A program made the translations under genes and the position numbers. A DNA stretch of 34,250 nt from an uncultured Gammaproteobacteria bacterium. GTDB lineage: Bacteria; Patescibacteriota; Patescibacteriia; UBA2591; UBA6264. Under the pieces are notes generated by a model. That model was given only the letters and a program-made list of their open reading frames with translations, was not told the origin of the DNA and made no database searches. This document shows positions 595 through 31,715 of the stretch, one piece after another. Each line of letters opens with the position of its first letter. Position 1 is the first letter of the stretch. The stretch is from contig CAZXPA010000002.1 of assembly GCA_964642485.1 (NCBI GenBank), positions 1 to 34,250 of the forward strand, given 5' to 3'.

Positions 595-1812
595 TTAAAA
601 TTTTTCTATCTCAGATTTCCTGACAGCAGCTTTAATAAGCTTTTTTATTCTAATCTTTTTTTCAGCTTTTTCTACATCTTTTAAACGAGCTCTGGTTTCC
701 GGGTGTTTAGGCAAAAATCGGCTGCAGCAATCTTGATCAGGTAAAATAGAGATGTCAAAAGTATTAATTTCTTTAGCTTTTTTTATTATTTCTTCCTTGT
801 CCTGGCCAACTAATGGCCTTAAAATTAATAATTCAACCGCTTGATTAATAACACCAATATTTTCTAGGGTTTGTGAAGCCACCTGACCAAGGCTTTCTCC
901 AGTTACCAGAGCCCGGGCCTTTTCTTTTTTAGCAACCTCTTGAGCGACCTTAAACATTATTCGACGGTATAAAATAATGCGCAACTTAGCCGGAGCATTT
1001 AAAAGAATCTCTTTTTGAATATCAGCAAAAGGCATTAAATAAAGTTTGGATTGAAACTGAAATTTAGTCAAAATTTTAACCAATTTCTTAGCCTTTTTGA
1101 TTGAGTCATCATTAGTATATGGATACGCATGAAAATGGATAAAAACCATTTTCAATCCTCTTTTAATGAGATAAAGGGCCGCAACTGGTGAATCAATCCC
1201 GCCAGAAAGCAACACTAAACCTTTACCGCTCACGCCAACTGGCAAACCACCCAGGCCTTTAATTTTCTCTAAATACAAAAAAGCGAATTTCTCAACAATT
1301 TCAATAAAACAAGTTAAATCTGGATTTTTTAAATCAACTTTTTTATTTAACCTTTCATTCAACCAAGCACCAACTTTTTCATTTATCTTTGGAGAGGTTA
1401 AGTAAAAATCTTTTTTTGATCTTTGAGTTAAAACTCGAAAACTTTTAAATTCTTTATGCTCTAAAAACTCTAATGCTTTTTTTTGAATTGATTCAATGTT
1501 TTGCTCAACACTTTGGGCAAAACAAAAATAAGCTAAACCAAAAACATTCTTCAAACTATCCTGAATCCGTTCTTGTCTTTTTTCCCCCTCAGGGCTTAAC
1601 TCAATAATAATTCGGCCTGAGATCCGCTTTACCCTGTTAAATAATTTCGCCTCTGGCGAAATTGCCGCTTTGCGGCATTTAACAGGGTGAACAAATTCAA
1701 AAAAGCAAGAATCTAAAGACTGTTTTAAATTCTCAACTAGTTTTTCTTCAAAAAACTTTCGATTTTTTCCTTTTAAGCCGATTTCGCTGTAATGACAAAT
1801 AATGTAATTCAT
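595..1812 (-). CDS. thiI: tRNA 4-thiouridine synthase ThiI (THUMP + PP-loop ATPase)
   Basis: PP-loop SGGIDSPVAA. The N-terminus MNYIICHYSEIGLKGKNR is typical of ThiI. The ATG at 1812 is preferred over the ORF-track start at 1848. Carries a 20-aa in-frame repeat insert. Confidence 0.9.
   Translation of the reverse strand: MNYIICHYSEIGLKGKNRKFFEEKLVENLKQSLDSCFFEFVHPVKCRKAAISPEAKLFNRVKRISGRIIIELSPEGEKRQERIQDSLKNVFGLAYFCFAQSVEQNIESIQKKALEFLEHKEFKSFRVLTQRSKKDFYLTSPKINEKVGAWLNERLNKKVDLKNPDLTCFIEIVEKFAFLYLEKIKGLGGLPVGVSGKGLVLLSGGIDSPVAALYLIKRGLKMVFIHFHAYPYTNDDSIKKAKKLVKILTKFQFQSKLYLMPFADIQKEILLNAPAKLRIILYRRIMFKVAQEVAKKEKARALVTGESLGQVASQTLENIGVINQAVELLILRPLVGQDKEEIIKKAKEINTFDISILPDQDCCSRFLPKHPETRARLKDVEKAEKKIRIKKLIKAAVRKSEIEKF
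1630..1692. repeat. 60-bp palindromic element, copy 1 (inside thiI, in frame)
   Basis: Terminal inverted repeats accctgttaaat and atttaacagggt. Inner hairpins aatttcgcc-tctg-ggcgaaatt and gccgc-ttt-gcggc. Related copies at 14779-14854 and 19934-19996. Confidence 0.9.
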
Positions 1813-9790: not shown

Positions 9791-9881
9791 AAGAATAAAG
9801 AAGTTTTTACCTATAACCTCCCTCAAAATAACATTATAAAGTCTGACACAATTCTATAAAAAATCAATCTCTTATACACTA

Positions 9882-9910
9882 TTTACAAAATAAAATTTAT
9901 ATGATAGAAT
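9882..9910 (+). promoter_or_regulatory. Candidate sigma70-like promoter of the tRNA-Phe/GIY-YIG locus
   Basis: TTTACA (9882-9887), 17-nt spacer, TAGAAT (9905-9910). Confidence 0.45.
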
Positions 9911-9945
9911 TGTCCATAGTTAATAATTACAACTTTGTCGCAAAA

Positions 9946-10018
9946 GCCGAGGTAGCTCAGTGGTACCTGCCTGCCGGCAGGCAGGCCTGCCTGCCGGCAG
10001 GCAGGGAGCAAATGGCTG
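9946..10018 (+). pseudogene. Disrupted 5' half of tRNA-Phe (positions 1-34)
   Basis: gccgaggtagctcagtggta, then a 40-nt palindrome insert, then gagcaaatggctg. This matches nt 1-34 of the downstream tRNA-Phe except for two stem bases. Confidence 0.8.
9966..10005. repeat. Two tandem perfect 20-nt palindromes (cctgcctgccggcaggcagg x2)
   Basis: Read directly from the sequence. The insert sits in the D-loop of the tRNA-Phe 5' fragment. Confidence 0.95.
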
Positions 10019-10031
10019 GTTTCAAATTTCT

Positions 10032-10274
10032 ATGACTTATAAAGTCTACGCTATTAAAAATAAAAAGGGAAGGATTTATATTGGACTAACAAAAAACATA
10101 AATCAACGATTAAAAGATCATAATAGTGGAAAAGTTTTTTCAACAAAAGGTTATAGACCGTGGGATTTATTTTATAATGAATTTTGTACAGATAGGATTA
10201 AAGCGCGGAAACGCGAAAAATTTTTAAAATCAGGCTGTGGTAAAGAATTTCTTAAAAAACTCATGCCGAGGTAG
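10032..10274 (+). CDS. Small GIY-YIG nuclease-family protein (80 aa)
   Basis: YKVYAIKNKKGRIYIGLTKNINQRLKDHNSG...REKFLKSGCG matches the GIY-YIG/UPF0213 pattern. The TAG stop lies inside tRNA-Phe. Confidence 0.85.
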   Translation: MTYKVYAIKNKKGRIYIGLTKNINQRLKDHNSGKVFSTKGYRPWDLFYNEFCTDRIKARKREKFLKSGCGKEFLKKLMPR

Positions 10275-10336
10275 CTCAGTGGTAGAGCAAAAGACTGAAA
10301 ACCATTGTGTCGGCAGTTCGATTCTGCCCCTCGGCA
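10265..10336 (+). tRNA. tRNA-Phe(GAA), no encoded CCA, weakened anticodon stem
   Basis: Acceptor GCCGAGG/CCTCGGC, loop CTGAAAA, T-arm GGCAG-TTCGATT-CTGCC. The anticodon stem AAAGA/CCATT has two mismatches. Confidence 0.75.
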
Positions 10337-10361
10337 CCTATTGATAACTATTATTAACATA

Positions 10362-10392
10362 AAAACCCACTTTTAAGTGGGTTTTTGTTTTG
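10362..10392. terminator. Bidirectional terminator
   Basis: aaaacccac-ttttaa-gtgggtttt, followed by tgttttg. Confidence 0.75.
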
Positions 10393-10431
10393 AAATGGGC
10401 ACTGAGGAATTTGAAACCCCGACCTACTAAA

Positions 10432-10692
10432 TCAAGTATACAAGTTACTGTGACTGTCTATGACGACAAAAATACATTCCTCTTCACTAATAAATTTATA
10501 AACAGCCCTTAAGTCTCCTGTTATATTAATACTCCGATAATCAGTATATTTTCCTTTTAAAGGGTGGTTATTAAGCCGAGAATTAAATGGATTTTTTAAA
10601 AATAATTCTAATCTTTCGCACACTTTTTCCTGTTCTTTTTTCTTTGGTTTCTTATATTGCTTTTCAAAATTCTTGTGAAAACGGATCTTCAT
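10432..10692 (-). CDS. RelE/YafQ-family type II toxin
   Basis: 86 aa with HPLKGKYTDYRSINITGDLRAVY, typical of RelE/ParE-fold toxins. Overlaps the antitoxin gene by 4 nt. Confidence 0.8.
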   Translation of the reverse strand: MKIRFHKNFEKQYKKPKKKEQEKVCERLELFLKNPFNSRLNNHPLKGKYTDYRSINITGDLRAVYKFISEEECIFVVIDSHSNLYT

Positions 10693-10964
10693 AAGGAAGT
10701 CAAATGTTTTTTAAATTCTTTTTTAGAAGAAAAATCACGTGATATATTTCTGTTTCTCTGAATATCAAATTCTATCTTACCTAAAAGCTTTTCCAGTTCC
10801 GGAGACATTTTAGGAGTAATGCTAAAATGAACCTCTTTATTTCTGACAAACTGCTTTAAATAGGCGTTAATAACTGCGCTCAAAGAAAGTCCTATTTCCT
10901 TAGCAAGTTTCTGAGCGCGAGCCTTTACCTCTTTTTCTGTTTTTATATTAATTACTACTCTCAT
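10689..10964 (-). CDS. RelB/DinJ-family antitoxin
   Basis: MRVVINIKTEKEVKARAQKLAKEIGLSLSAVINAYLKQFV resembles a ribbon-helix-helix N-terminus. The ATG at 10964 is preferred over 11000. Confidence 0.7.
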   Translation of the reverse strand: MRVVINIKTEKEVKARAQKLAKEIGLSLSAVINAYLKQFVRNKEVHFSITPKMSPELEKLLGKIEFDIQRNRNISRDFSSKKEFKKHLTSL

Positions 10965-11105
10965 ATACCTAAAGTATATACAATGGTTAATAGATGTCAA
11001 GAGACTATTTGTGGAAAACTTTAAGAACCTGCTCTAAAAATTTTGGCTTCTTTTTGTTATTTTTACTCATTTTGCAGATTGTCGTAGTTTATCATAATAT
11101 AGAAG

Positions 11106-14153: not shown

Positions 14154-14950
14154 TATTGACTATTTTTTAATTTTTTTAAAAAATCATCTAACTCTTTTGG
14201 TAACCCACTTTTAAACTCTTGCCACCTATTATTTAAATCATAAAAACCTAAATAACAAGCATGTAAAAATATTCTCCCTAATTTTTGTTTGGTTGTTAAA
14301 TTGTTTAATTGTTTAATTGAATATCGCCTGTCCCCAACAATTGGACAATTAATTGATTTAAGATGAACTCTTATCTGATGAGTCCGGCCAGTTGCCGGTC
14401 TTACCTGCAAAAGGGTAAAATCCTTAAATTGTTTTTTGATTTTATACCTTGTAAATGCCGGCTTCTCGTCTTTTATCTTTTTTCTATACTGAACAGCAAC
14501 AATTTTCCCTTCTCTAGTTCTAGCTAAAGGTATATCAATTATTCCTCTTTTTTCTAAAGGCCTGCCATGAACTAAAGCTAAATATTCTTTTTTTATCTTA
14601 CCCTGTTTAAACTGCTCAATTAAGACTTGATACATTTTTTCCGTCCGGGCCACAACCATTAAGCCAGAGACATCTCTGTCTAGACGATGGACAATCCCCC
14701 ATCGTCCTGGCTGACCAACCCCTTTTATCTCTGGATAATATTTTAAAAGCAAGTCAACTAAAGTTTTGTCTAAAGAATATTTAACAGGGTGAACCCTGTT
14801 AAATAATTTCGCCCTTGGCGAAATTCCTGCTCCGCAGGATTTAACAGGGTGAACCAATAAACCGGCTGGTTTATCAACTATTAAAAAATTATCATCCTTG
14901 GTCAGGATGTCTAATTTTATATCAAATTTAGGGAAAAAGTCAACTGGCAT
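14153..14950 (-). CDS. RluA-family pseudouridine synthase (no S4 domain)
   Basis: Motifs DKPAGLLVHP, HRLDRDVSGLMVVART and GRTHQIRVHL. Carries a 20-aa in-frame repeat insert directly after LLVHP. Confidence 0.9.
   Translation of the reverse strand: MPVDFFPKFDIKLDILTKDDNFLIVDKPAGLLVHPVKSCGAGISPRAKLFNRVHPVKYSLDKTLVDLLLKYYPEIKGVGQPGRWGIVHRLDRDVSGLMVVARTEKMYQVLIEQFKQGKIKKEYLALVHGRPLEKRGIIDIPLARTREGKIVAVQYRKKIKDEKPAFTRYKIKKQFKDFTLLQVRPATGRTHQIRVHLKSINCPIVGDRRYSIKQLNNLTTKQKLGRIFLHACYLGFYDLNNRWQEFKSGLPKELDDFLKKLKNSQ
14779..14854. repeat. 60-bp palindromic element, copy 2 (inside the rluA-family gene), plus a 16-bp direct repeat
   Basis: atttaacagggtgaac occurs at 14779-14794 and 14839-14854, exactly 60 bp apart. 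Inner hairpins aatttcgcc-cttg-ggcgaaatt and cctgc-tcc-gcagg. Confidence 0.9.
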
Positions 14951-17627: not shown

Positions 17628-17939
17628 CATGTTATTCCCTATGTTTCCATGGGCACGGACTATATCTTCACCCCCTTCTTTCGATCGAAAGGAGGGGGGC
17701 CAACGTATGATAACAGTTTGATTCTCTAATAAACTTAGAGCCCCTGCTATCAAAGGTATAAACCTTAAGTCTCTACGGGGCGAAGCACTCAACGCCTTGA
17801 GTGCTCGCTTCCCACGATGTTGCCTTCATGCCTTTATTTTAGCATAAAATGACTAAAAAATAAAGAGTAAGGGTTCACCGTTATAGTTGGGTTTTTCTTA
17901 AGGATTACTCCCTAAGGTCGCAATTTACAGGTTGTAACC
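17628..17939 (-). mobile_element. Group I intron (312 nt, no ORF) at E. coli-equivalent position about 1498
   Basis: Interrupts AAGTCGT|AACAAGG. The 5' exon ends in U and the intron ends in G. Core-like GTAGAGACTTAAGG and GAAGATATAGTCCGT elements. GCGAC can pair with exon GUCGU, with a U-G pair at the splice site. Confidence 0.8.
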
Positions 17940-18358
17940 ACGACTTCGCCCCTGTTACCAATCCTACCTTATTCCCGCGAACGCGGACTTTCGGGTATTA
18001 CCGGCTTCCTTGGCGTGACGGGCAGTGAGTACAAAGTTTGGGAACGTATTCACCGTACCGTAGCTGATATACGGTTACTAGCGATTCCAGCTTCATGAGG
18101 TCGAGTTGCAGACCTCAATCCGAACTGAGACCGGCTTTGATGGGATTAGCTCCGCCTTACGGCTTTGCGACCCTTTGTACCGGCCATTGTACCACGTGTG
18201 TTGCCCAGGGCATAAGGGCCATGCTGATTTGACGTCGTCCCCACCTTCCTCCGGCTCATCACCGGCAGTCCTCTTAGAGTGCCCAACTTCTTAAAAGAAT
18301 GATGGCAACTAAGAGCAAGGGTTGCGCTCGTTTCCCCACTTAAGGGTACACGTCACCG

Positions 18359-18389
<31 letters not shown>

Positions 18390-18519
18390 ACTAGGTTCCG
18401 ATTTTACGGTCAGTCAACCTTTCGGCTAACCTACAACCTAGCGAGTCAAGCCCTGGTGAGGTTCTTCGCTTAGCATCGAATTAAACCACATGGTCCACCG
18501 CTTGTGCAAACTCCCGTCT

Positions 18520-18551
<32 letters not shown>

Positions 18552-18932
18552 TCCCAGGCGGGATGCTTAACGCGTTAGCTTTTTTACTGCGGCACTGAAA
18601 GGGTCGACACTTCCAATGCCCAGCATCCATCGTTTACGGCGTGGAATACCGGGGTATCTAATCCCGTTCTCTCCCCACGCTTTCGTGTCTCAGCGTCAGA
18701 ACTGTTCTAGCAAGCTGCCTTCGCATTCGGTGTTCCTGCCGATATTAACGGATTCTACCCCTACACCGGCAGTTCCACTTGCCTCTCCCAGTCTCTAGTT
18801 TAATAGTTTTTCTGGCGCTCCCAATGTTGAGCAAAGGGCTTTAACCAGAAACTTATTAAACCGCCTACACACGCTTTACGCCCAGTAAATCCGGATAACG
18901 CTTGTCGCCTTCGTCTTACCGCAGCTGCTGGC

Positions 18933-19380
18933 TGTATACTCATAATAGAGTAATTGCTACGGACTATATCACAATCCTTTTTTATAAATAAAAGGACCCT
19001 CGGCGTATGATAACAGTTTATAATTCCAGATTATCTGGCACCTGTTATCTCATCGCTTAATATTTAGCTTTAAGCGAATCAGTCTCTGAGGGGTTAATCC
19101 CGACTTGTCGGGACAACTTCCCTGCTGATTGCCTATAAGCTGTTTCGTCATAAACGAAATGCAGCAAAATCTTAAAGTTTAGATAAGAATTTTAACCTTT
19201 TCAAACTTCAAGGTTCTGGCAAAGCCAGGTTCTTATAGTTTGGCAATAAGATATTATACCTTTCAAACTTCAAGGTTCTGGCAAAGCCAGGTTCTTATAG
19301 GTTTCCAGCATATAAGCCAAGTTTTTCAACTTCGATTACTCGAAGAAGTCGCGCTCTTTGATAAGACGAAAATTAATTGC
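18933..19380 (-). mobile_element. Group I intron (about 448 nt, no ORF) at E. coli-equivalent position about 516
   Basis: Interrupts CTTCGT|GCCAGCAGC. Core-like CTCAGAGACTGATT and GTGATATAGTCCGT. Shares aaactgttatcatacg with the other intron. Boundaries are ambiguous by 1-2 nt. Confidence 0.75.
19195..19300. repeat. 43-44 bp direct repeat (period 63 bp) inside the position-516 intron
   Basis: acctttt-caaacttcaaggttctggcaaagccaggttcttatag at 19195-19238 and again at 19258-19300, differing by one T. Confidence 0.9.
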
Positions 19381-19821
19381 ACGAAGTTAGCTGCGACTTA
19401 TTCCTGGGGTACACTCAACCGAAGCTTGTTCCCCCAGAAAAGCAGTTTACACTCCGAAAAGATTCATCCTGCACGCGGCGTCGCTCCTTCAGCCTTTCGG
19501 CCATTGAGGAAGATTCTTGACTGCAGCCCCCCGTAGGAGATTGAGCAGTGTCTCAGTCTCAATGAGGCGGATCATGCTCTCACACCCGCTACCCGTCATC
19601 GGCTTGGTAGGCCATTACCCTACCAACAACCTGATGGGCCATAAGCTCCTCAGAAAGCGCGATTGCTCGCTTTACTAAGCACTCAATATGAGTGCTCAGC
19701 ATATGGGGTATTAGCCTCGATTTCTCGAGGTTATTCCCCTCTTTCCGGCAGATTACTAATGTGTTACTCTCCCGTTTGCCACTGCCTGATAAATCAGGCC
19801 GTTCGACTTGCATGCCTTAGA

Positions 19822-19861
<40 letters not shown>

Positions 19862-19933
19862 TTAAAAAAGATTTGATCTAATAAATAAAAGGAATAGATT
19901 GGCTAATTCTCTACCTTTGACAAATTCTTCATT

Positions 19934-19996
19934 TTACCCTGTTAAATGCCGCTTCGCGGCAATTTCGCCAAGGGCGAAATTATTTAACAGGGTGAA
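19934..19996. repeat. 60-bp palindromic element, copy 3 (intergenic, between trmD and 16S)
   Basis: taccctgttaaat-gccgc-ttc-gcggc-aatttcgcc-aag-ggcgaaatt-atttaacagggtga. On the plus strand it is in the opposite orientation to copies 1 and 2. Confidence 0.9.
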
Positions 19997-28155: not shown

Positions 28156-28312
28156 TCCCTGCTACTCTCGTAATGCTTGACATTTCTAAGAAATAAAGTA
28201 AAATACAGGTCATCATAATATATAACATGGCAACATGAGAACATTTCCTGCCTGCGGCAGGTAAAAAAAGAAATTTCTATAAAGCAAAATTTCTTATGTT
28301 CCAATGTTCCAA

Positions 28313-31546: not shown

Positions 31547-31715
31547 TACATTATAAATTCTAAATCCTAATTTCTAAATCCTAAACAAATTCAAAATTCT
31601 AAATTCAAATGTTCCAAACAAAAGATATCTATTCTTAAATTTGAAAATTGAGATTTAAATATTATTTAGAATTTCGGATTTAGGATTTCGGGATTCCTGC
31701 CGTAGGCAGGTCATA

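Follow-up and report, generated by a model that had tools for sequence, protein, structure and literature searches.

GIY-YIG nucleases at tRNA genes are best known from phage T4, where SegB, a free-standing homing endonuclease encoded in a tRNA cluster, recognizes a motif of the T-psi-C stem-loop of tRNA genes and spreads by double-strand-break repair with co-conversion of flanking tRNA markers; nearly 100% of progeny inherit it, and the markers that flank the site in the recipient are lost (PMC2330249). SegB also drives the recombination-dependent tandem amplification of segB and tRNA, and a C-terminal truncation (SegB-short) abolishes its overexpression toxicity (PMC13096335). Integrative elements that target tRNA genes leave a partial tRNA copy at their far end while the gene itself stays intact (PMC9897764, a review of such fragments), and in fractured genes a free-standing homing endonuclease gene lies between the halves of a split-intein gene (PMC2677866). 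Our subject is a locus in a 34,250-nt stretch of DNA from an uncultured bacterium (contig CAZXPA010000002.1 of assembly GCA_964642485.1, positions 1 to 34,250; hereafter the window), in which a gene for an 80-aa GIY-YIG protein is nested in a tRNA-Phe gene together with a partial duplicate of that gene and a GC-rich palindrome. T4 SegB is its closest experimentally established precedent. We consider it probable that this locus belongs to a widespread family of homing-type selfish cassettes that live inside bacterial tRNA genes.

The unit begins with an orphan piece of tRNA-Phe, nt 1–20 (segment A, 9946–9965, + strand, GCCGAGGTAGCTCAGTGGTA), which comprises the acceptor 5′ strand, the D-stem 5′ strand and the D-loop and is identical at 20/20 positions to 10265–10284. 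Between nt 20 and nt 21 of this non-functional copy (GGTA|GAGC) lies a perfect 40-nt palindrome, no strand assigned, made of two tandem copies of a 20-mer, CCTGCCTGCCGGCAGGCAGG (palindrome H, 9966–10005), and beyond it a relic of tRNA-Phe nt 21–33 (segment B′, 10006–10018, +, GAGCAAATGGCTG) that matches 10285–10297 at 11/13 positions. A 13-nt leader (10019–10031, +) then runs from the relic to the start codon of the GIY-YIG open reading frame (ORF; 10032–10274, +, ATG to TAG). The last 10 nt of the ORF overlap the resident tRNA-Phe(GAA), which is contiguous (10265–10338, +; ARAGORN; Rfam 62.5 bits), and the stop codon is tRNA nt 8–10 (U8-A9-G10). An earlier note on this DNA had reported that the first 33 nt of tRNA-Phe occur twice, the upstream copy split by the 40-nt palindrome, and this stands: the two copies agree at 31/33 positions and differ solely at tRNA positions 29 and 31. 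Equally, the coordinates and the protein-family match agree with its description of a 13-nt leader, an 80-aa GIY-YIG ORF and an overlapping replacement 5′ half. The contiguous tRNA-Phe is present in the DNA, and no separate 3′ half goes with the upstream fragment. Several other candidates were considered for the locus. A split or permuted tRNA and an archaeal-type tRNA intron are ruled out by the contiguous tRNA-Phe (ARAGORN, Rfam). A group I intron or other known RNA was rejected as well, the Rfam searches (gathering threshold over the whole window; E ≤ 10 over 9850–10400) having given tRNA and chance hairpins only, with no match to Intron_gpI; 279 bp that hold a 243-bp ORF also leave no room for a ribozyme.

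The window's arrangement, a minimal GIY-YIG cassette nested in a tRNA gene with a carried segment that keeps a contiguous tRNA, was proposed in the earlier note for this locus and proves to be a recurrent architecture. A scan of one genome per species (185,579 species), seeded by a single peptide pattern and thus giving counts that are a lower bound, found at least 471 confirmed relatives of the query; there are 96 close protein homologs, mostly in Patescibacteria, and a profile search of 1.8 billion cluster representatives (50% identity) returned 4,820 clusters at E ≤ 1e-10. The layout was compared in 94 homologous ORFs, representing 80 loci (referred to below by L numbers) and the window, from Patescibacteria, Bacteroidota, Omnitrophota and Ignavibacteriota, isolate genomes included, among them those of Pedobacter albus and Cyclobacterium xiamenense (L053, L059). 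That GIY-YIG paralogs should adjoin tRNA halves is what the earlier note would lead one to expect, and nearly all of them do: a tRNA on the same strand starts between −60 and +30 nt from the stop in 55 of the 94 ORFs, the stop codon falls within the tRNA in 34, and most loci carry an upstream duplicate of the first 20–26 nt of the same tRNA. An exact 10-nt overlap of ORF and tRNA occurs at 21 loci, with TAG formed by U8-A9-G10 in 21/21. The target tRNAs are mainly Arg-CCT (in Bacteroidota), Asn, Thr, Leu and Phe, with Arg-ACG/CCG/TCG, Lys and Ile also used, and tRNA-Cys and tRNA-Tyr in more distant subfamilies.

Two mirror forms are found at the same tRNA site. In form L (window, L041, L088), a tRNA 5′ part A is followed by H, a B′ of variable length, the ORF and a complete tRNA; in form R (L019, L050, L055, L016, L074, L004), a complete tRNA is followed by a spacer, the ORF and a partial or whole tRNA copy with H. 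In both forms the ORF separates H from the intact tRNA. The restoration of the 5′ side inferred earlier is thus correct for the window, where the 5′ part is the one repeated, and it fails as the sole mode, the mirror copies restoring the 3′ side. Tandem arrays also occur, of two units in L041, three in L049 and four in L059, and L030 holds an ORF-less mini-unit consisting of A, H, 8 nt and 13 nt followed by tRNA-Thr(CGT). Such mini-units, in which an orphan 5′ fragment, H and a short relic stand 5′ of an intact tRNA-Thr(CGT) (L030 2800–2863, L006 2813–2897), lie beside a full GIY-YIG element at tRNA-Thr(GGT), and may be non-autonomous derivatives or footprints. Distant GIY-YIG subfamilies share this layout with other GC-rich palindromes: L101 (1040–1447) sits at tRNA-Tyr with several stacked palindromes, and L093 (90–760) is a two-unit tandem at tRNA-Cys with the palindrome CCCGCCTTCGGCGGG. 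The phenomenon is thus broader than the subfamily of the window, defined below by its C-terminal motif.

The window protein belongs to the GIY-YIG family with confidence (PF01541, 59.8 bits against a cut-off of 22.6, E = 3e-16). The catalytic residues Tyr, Tyr, Arg, His and Glu have been retained, with Y6, Y16, G18, R26, H30 and N31 invariant and E62 present in at least 90% of 28 sequences, and an invariant C-terminal motif, KSGxGKEFLK, is specific to the subfamily. The AF2 model (pLDDT 95) has the order beta-beta-alpha-beta-alpha-alpha. A profile search against the PDB gave 1ywl (1.2e-7), 1zg2 (3.5e-7) and Slx1 (~4e-4), and the top Foldseek matches are 1zg2 (UPF0213) and Slx1 (7cq2/6seh), at TM ~0.6–0.7; similarity to I-TevI and Seg proteins is limited to the N-terminal GIY-YIG motifs. 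All 80 aa are taken up by the catalytic domain, with no separate DNA-binding domain as in I-TevI or Seg proteins. The group I intron endonuclease model TIGR01453 reaches 17 bits against a cut-off of 56, NCBIfam gives a weak motif-level match only, and Pfam finds on the unit GIY-YIG plus a weak T5orf172 match only, with no HUH (Y1) transposase. Membership of a defence system was considered and dropped, the matches in PADLOC and PHROGs being weak ones to the GIY motif. An exact-sequence look-up of the protein returned no match. The ORF is under purifying selection (dN/dS 0.07–0.21 at dS 0.8–2.4; 0.14–0.21 for the window ORF against its relatives). The protein is best read, from its profile and fold matches, as an Slx1/UPF0213-like mini-nuclease, and the retained catalytic residues would predict nuclease activity for it.

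Palindrome H is, on the sequences compared here, the most conserved DNA feature of the family and its hallmark. The earlier note had set it aside when comparing the two tRNA copies, yet H is not incidental and is conserved across phyla: it lies within 160 nt of 88 of the 94 homologous ORFs, in Patescibacteria, Bacteroidota, Omnitrophota and Ignavibacteriota. The exact CCTGCCTGCCGGCAGGCAGG accounts for 51 of the 77 distinct H copies, and 73/73 exact H cores in 413 kb of fetched DNA fall within 700 nt of a GIY-YIG ORF. The window has the 20-mer nowhere else (0 expected in shuffles), and the 40-nt palindrome folds as an 18-bp hairpin (z = −8.6). H is nearly invariant while the synonymous sites of the ORF approach saturation (dS 0.8–2.4). 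The 8 + 8 nt around H restore an intact tRNA, typically at 16/16 positions, and H is thus a clean insertion without target duplication. Its insertion points (after tRNA nt 9, 14–17, 20–24, 26, 32, 35 and 55–57) are all in loops or at loop/stem borders, most commonly in the context TA|GA, and some broken tRNA copies contain several or nested H copies (L023, L059, L048).

The strength of this sequence conservation argues for recognition by a protein, for which the nuclease is the only candidate in the unit, and we infer that H is the recognition or structure element of the nuclease. Variant pairs among H copies, 17 of G·U type against 11 of A·C type and without strand bias, are not decisive between selection at the RNA and at the DNA level. 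Slx1 cleaves branched and stem-loop DNA in a structure-specific manner, and an H able to form a hairpin or cruciform would fit as a substrate of this kind; H could be a dyad or cruciform site for the Slx1-like nuclease. Other candidate roles are those of a mobile hairpin, of a hairpin shielding the mRNA end, or of a divider that would split the direct repeats flanking the ORF into pieces too short to recombine efficiently and would so protect the cassette from deletion. For models of H based on a circle, on terminal inverted repeats or on cruciform resolution, no favouring sequence evidence was found, for example half-palindromes at the unit ends. A divergent GIY-YIG subfamily (motif KSGKGREYLN, at tRNA-Cys) has a different palindrome, the CCCGCCTTCGGCGGG given above.

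Further palindromes and insertions occur elsewhere. Short palindromes with the arms of H (CCTGCC-N1-3-GGCAGG) are found in the window at 2072–2084, 28247–28261 and 31696–31710, against ~0.4 expected in shuffles (36% GC), and the last of them ends 5 nt before the transfer-messenger RNA (tmRNA) gene (31716). A second conserved insertion of ~30 nt, ..CC(T/A)CCT(G/T)CGCCAAGGCTTCGG(A/T)..GGACAA.., breaks further orphan tRNA 5′ fragments in Patescibacteria and Bacteroidales, at L099 100–150, L100 ~40–95 (after tRNA-Phe nt 10) and L038 2441–2472 (in the D-loop of tRNA-Arg).

The resident tRNA-Phe of the window is itself abnormal, as the earlier note had suspected. Inspection of the cloverleaf shows AAAGA opposite CCATT in the anticodon stem, with mismatches A29·A41 and A31·C39, whereas the upstream AATGG, when swapped in, gives five Watson–Crick pairs and lowers the cloverleaf energy from −25.5 to −29.5 kcal/mol, so that the contrast drawn earlier between the two 5′ strands is sound. 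No other genuine tRNA among 68 that flank homologous GIY-YIG genes has a double mismatch in the anticodon stem. AAAGA is a natural allele: it pairs with TCTTT in the GIY-free tRNA-Phe genes L084–L086, which are not syntenic with the window, and this fits a foreign origin of the window's AAAGA strand. The window's 3′ strand, CCATT, is unlike the TCTAT/TCTAC of all four related Phe loci; relative to these (ATAGA/TCTAT and GTAGA/TCTAC), the 5′ strand is one change off and the 3′ strand three. An AAAGA near the relatives, a distant CCATT and the AAAGA/TCTTT allele together make a chimera joined in the anticodon loop a good reading, and the most likely origin of the mismatched tRNA-Phe is a recent co-conversion in which a foreign AAAGA 5′ strand would have been joined to the native CCATT 3′ strand. 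The chimeric stem is the pattern that co-conversion would leave. When metagenomes were scanned for tRNA-Phe genes having one or the other 3′ strand, three AAAGA/TCTTT genes only and zero CCATT alleles came up.

The earlier note had explained the same stem differently, taking the upstream fragment plus the downstream 3′ half as the ancestral tRNA-Phe, into which a single 279-bp unit (leader, ORF and new 5′ half) was inserted after G34; on this model the palindrome would be separate and incidental. The upstream homology does stop exactly at G34, AATGG pairs fully with CCATT where the contiguous AAAGA does not, and with AAAGA a natural foreign allele one recombination junction in the anticodon loop would account for both facts. 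The comparison of the five Phe-type elements, in which A and H do not vary, B′ and the leader do and the tRNA is conserved, speaks otherwise. L099, the closest GIY-YIG relative of the window (77% aa and 81% nt identity), has the same GAGCAAATGGC relic after its H and a homologous leader (..TTTCTATG; variable in other relatives), and yet its resident tRNA-Phe has the stem GTAGA/TCTAC. The relic can thus travel with the element and need not be a local ancestral half, as the note had taken it to be, and insertion after G34 is not secure; agreement of the relic's two positions between the window and L099 has a chance probability of ~1/16, which is low but not negligible. Furthermore, the synonymous divergence between the window and L081, its nearest relative in that measurement and at the same aa identity as L099, is ~0.8. 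This makes the shared relic old, and a mismatch would hardly have gone uncompensated since the original insertion, which favours a recent co-conversion of the 5′ part of the functional copy. The boundary after G34 is also a peculiarity of the window's locus: among relatives the upstream fragment stops anywhere between ~nt 25 and nt 55, the fixed junction being that of H at the D-loop/D-stem border, and an H conserved across phyla cannot be incidental. We therefore regard the 279-bp insertion as unlikely. Between L099 and L100, the identities of the flanks (86%) and of the ORF (80%) are too alike for element replacement to be seen.

We picture the cassette as an ~80-aa GIY-YIG nuclease of Slx1/UPF0213 type, a carried piece of the target tRNA and the ~20-bp GC-rich palindrome H, and homing, as read from sequence comparison, would proceed as follows. 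The nuclease would break the tRNA gene, or a structure formed there, and repair off the element-bearing copy would duplicate the cassette with variable co-conversion of the flanking tRNA. The carried 5′ segment would rebuild a contiguous tRNA, so that the host loses nothing, and the displaced copy would be left non-functional and marked by H. Misaligned repair would give tandem arrays. A donor carrying a tRNA interrupted by H, together with the ORF, could recombine with an intact tRNA on either side of H, which would generate forms L and R, both of which retain an uninterrupted tRNA. The arrays, the ORF-less derivatives, the nested or multiple H copies and the many tRNA targets all look like selfish dynamics.

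Several points weigh against this mechanism. First of all, no empty orthologous site was found, and with it no presence/absence polymorphism, the classic homing signature; the best homolog of the flanking malic-enzyme gene is only 72% identical, and neither of the two relatives compared is syntenic. Second, the five Phe-type elements are 64–88% identical and share a tRNA neighbourhood (Phe then Val on the opposite strand in L081, L082 and L010; Ala and Leu also in L010 and the window), which long vertical persistence could explain. Third, the intact adjacent tRNA keeps the insertion sites of H, and an immunity in which insertion destroys the target thus fails to explain its escape. An 80-aa catalytic domain, as far as its sequence indicates, would have no obvious means to recognize a long site, and a hydrolytic GIY-YIG enzyme would leave the clean 20-bp insertion of H at many tRNA positions unexplained. 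Finally, no plasmid or phage vector copies were found, with none at 1e-8 and one weak match in viral contigs.

Part of this would suit a domesticated or resident module, inherited vertically as a companion of certain tRNA genes and serving the host or acting at the RNA level, with H stabilizing the mRNA end or the nuclease aiding tRNA gene conversion or amplification. The purifying selection on the ORF is strong, wide clades keep to one and the same tRNA (Arg-CCT in Bacteroidota as a whole; Phe, with a shared neighbourhood, in one group of Patescibacteria), H is always distal to the intact tRNA in both forms, vectors were not found, and amplification of the SegB type can benefit the carrier (PMC13096335). 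A structural RNA hairpin, on the other hand, should drift by compensatory change, yet most H copies are identical (51/77) and the 17 against 11 variant pairs show no strand bias. The position of H follows the broken tRNA copy and not the ORF, the arrays, ORF-less derivatives, nested or multiple H and varied tRNA targets have a selfish look, and the distribution is sparse, with at least 471 relatives in 185,579 one-per-species genomes. A resident role for the module is thus, in our judgement, improbable.

We attach a similarly low likelihood to the idea that H itself is mobile, in which case an Slx1-like GIY-YIG protein and a 20-bp hairpin would form a new transposition or homing system, which would place the hairpin in the single-stranded loops of tRNA-gene DNA folded as a cloverleaf, duplicate no target sequence and survive by a carried or duplicated spare tRNA segment. 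If this were true, it would be the GIY-YIG counterpart of REP/RAYT or IS200/IS605 and, at ~300 bp, the smallest known autonomous element specialized for tRNA genes. Far less likely still is that H is an intron-like insertion removed from RNA, that H-bearing tRNAs are functional and that the GIY-YIG protein is the homing endonuclease of this mini-intron. H does always lie in cloverleaf loops or junctions, certain H-bearing copies lack nothing and, H aside, match the intact copy exactly (L016, L038, L042), and ARAGORN calls two of them intron-containing; but at every locus examined the same tRNA also adjoins in uninterrupted form, the H-bearing copies are mostly truncated (the window's to nt 1–33), the Rfam search found no ribozyme or intron, and we know of no bacterial machinery that excises a 20-nt hairpin from a D-loop. 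Although the genome appears to be of the uncultured Patescibacteria type and short repeats and palindromes can mislead assemblers, an assembly or duplication artefact in this metagenome-assembled contig is hardly conceivable, as the architecture recurs in more than 80 independent assemblies (the doubled palindrome included in L010 and L016) and in the isolates L049, L053, L059 (complete chromosome NZ_CP159481.1), L064 and L077, which also disposes of the recent assembly duplication that the earlier note had considered for the upstream fragment, while a strain-mixing chimera is unlikely, subject to the assembler's word size, because the longest unbroken identity between the two tRNA copies is 27 nt (20 nt across the upstream palindrome) and the junction falls in a 7-nt loop.

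Around the homing cassette proposed here, a promoter-like site (TTTACA, 17 nt, TGnTAGAAT; 9882–9910, +; 10/12 matches in a consensus scan, with an extended −10 TG) sits ~36 nt 5′ of the orphan tRNA fragment. A hairpin followed by a T-run, AAAACCCACTTTTAAGTGGGTTTTTG (10362–10385, +), read from the sequence, probably terminates the unit; Rfam has nothing there beyond partial matches of terminator type (sroH), and a simple terminator scan made no call. The stretch 9882–10385 thus looks like one transcription unit, and the promoter-like site is presumably the original promoter of tRNA-Phe, from which fragment, ORF and tRNA would now be transcribed together. Just 3′ of the terminator, two small overlapping ORFs on the − strand (86 and 103 aa; 10432–10692 and 10689–11000) look like a toxin–antitoxin pair by size and arrangement. 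The 16S rRNA gene (17913–19867, − strand) measures 1,955 nt against a model of 1,533 positions and thus has an insertion of ~420 nt; such insertions are common in Patescibacteria. A ~60-nt compound-hairpin repeat, CCCTGTTAAATAATTTCGCC...GGCGAAATT-[short GC hairpin]-ATTTAACAGGG, is present in at least three copies in the window (1628–1691, ~14796–14855 and, as reverse complement, 19933–19996), one of them ~70 nt upstream of the 16S rRNA 5′ end. Its apical hairpin varies by copy (GCCGCTTTGCGGC, CCTGCTCCGCAGG), and the repeat resembles REP or MITE elements and would be this genome's own.

The element also leaves its mark on annotation. Called proteins run on into ..RGSSVVEQ or ...CSSVG, which is the downstream tRNA in translation, and 31 of 148 representatives are over-called proteins that begin with translated H (LPAGRQ, PACRQAG). 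N-terminal extensions of library proteins (P0219–P0336 and others) translate the orphan tRNA fragment and H, e.g. MVELADLPAGRQA..., and ARAGORN reports H-bearing copies as intron tRNAs with an undetermined or ambiguous anticodon (L038 2973–3065 and 3141–3233; L042 2737–2831). H-bearing tRNA copies are a likely source of spurious "intron-containing" bacterial tRNA annotations. If our reading is true, it would thus explain over-extended "GIY-YIG" ORFs, read-through into tRNA and pseudo-tRNAs called intron-bearing. More importantly, homing-type elements would have a new means of occupying an essential gene, by neither RNA nor protein splicing: a ~300-bp cassette brings a spare piece of tRNA, and a conserved palindrome marks the discarded copy. 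The family spans phyla as distant as Patescibacteria and Bacteroidota, and it would offer a route for the horizontal exchange of tRNA halves, which would yield chimeric tRNAs like that of the window. An 80-aa nuclease with a defined 20-bp palindrome is also a possible tool, as a minimal system for studying target recognition by GIY-YIG enzymes. A literature search, whose coverage left out most subscription-journal papers, found no paper with the palindrome sequence and none linking GIY-YIG genes with partial tRNA copies in bacteria; a widespread, putatively selfish DNA element that occupies tRNA genes without destroying them is thus apparently undescribed.

The known systems resemble this locus in part. 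First of all, fractured genes likewise place a homing endonuclease gene within an essential gene whose rescue is not by intron splicing; they rely on protein trans-splicing, whereas here it is a carried duplicate of a gene segment that would serve. Second, group I introns in tRNA anticodon loops are insertions into a tRNA gene near the anticodon, as in the window, can carry a GIY-YIG gene and keep tRNA function, but they do so by RNA splicing and not, as here, by DNA duplication. Third, REP/RAYT and IS200/IS605 systems also combine short GC-rich palindromes, without target-site duplication, with a small nuclease-type gene, and insertion into unpaired regions would fit a single-strand mechanism. 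Their enzymes, on the other hand, are HUH/Y1 transposases with covalent intermediates and their palindromes are spread genome-wide, whereas here the protein is a hydrolytic GIY-YIG enzyme and H is confined to tRNA copies beside the gene.

Islands and prophages that use integrases insert into a tRNA gene and carry part of it so that the gene stays intact, which is the likeness; they are kilobases long, with a site-specific recombinase and att sites, and typically restore the 3′ part. Here the unit is ~300 bp, its only ORF is the 80-aa GIY-YIG gene with no recombinase gene present, the repeated part in the window is the 5′ part, either side can be restored in the family, and the leftover copy is interrupted by a palindrome. 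Slx1 and UPF0213 (COG2827, YhbQ-like), single-domain URI-type nucleases, are the best profile and fold matches, but no tRNA-nested layout or palindrome was found described for them, and KSGxGKEFLK is this subfamily's own. Finally, SegB shares with our locus a GIY-YIG gene among tRNA genes, and tandem arrays and a chimeric tRNA are seen in our family as well. SegB is, however, a phage protein of well over 200 aa with a DNA-binding region, encoded between whole tRNA genes, whereas here the gene is chromosomal and cellular, lies within one tRNA gene that has been partly duplicated, encodes an 80-aa catalytic domain only, ends inside the tRNA and is accompanied by a conserved 20-bp palindrome. We thus rate the free-standing GIY-YIG homing endonuclease at tRNA genes as known, and as undescribed for that kind the carried tRNA segment that restores the target, the stop codon inside the tRNA and the obligatory palindrome in the discarded copy.

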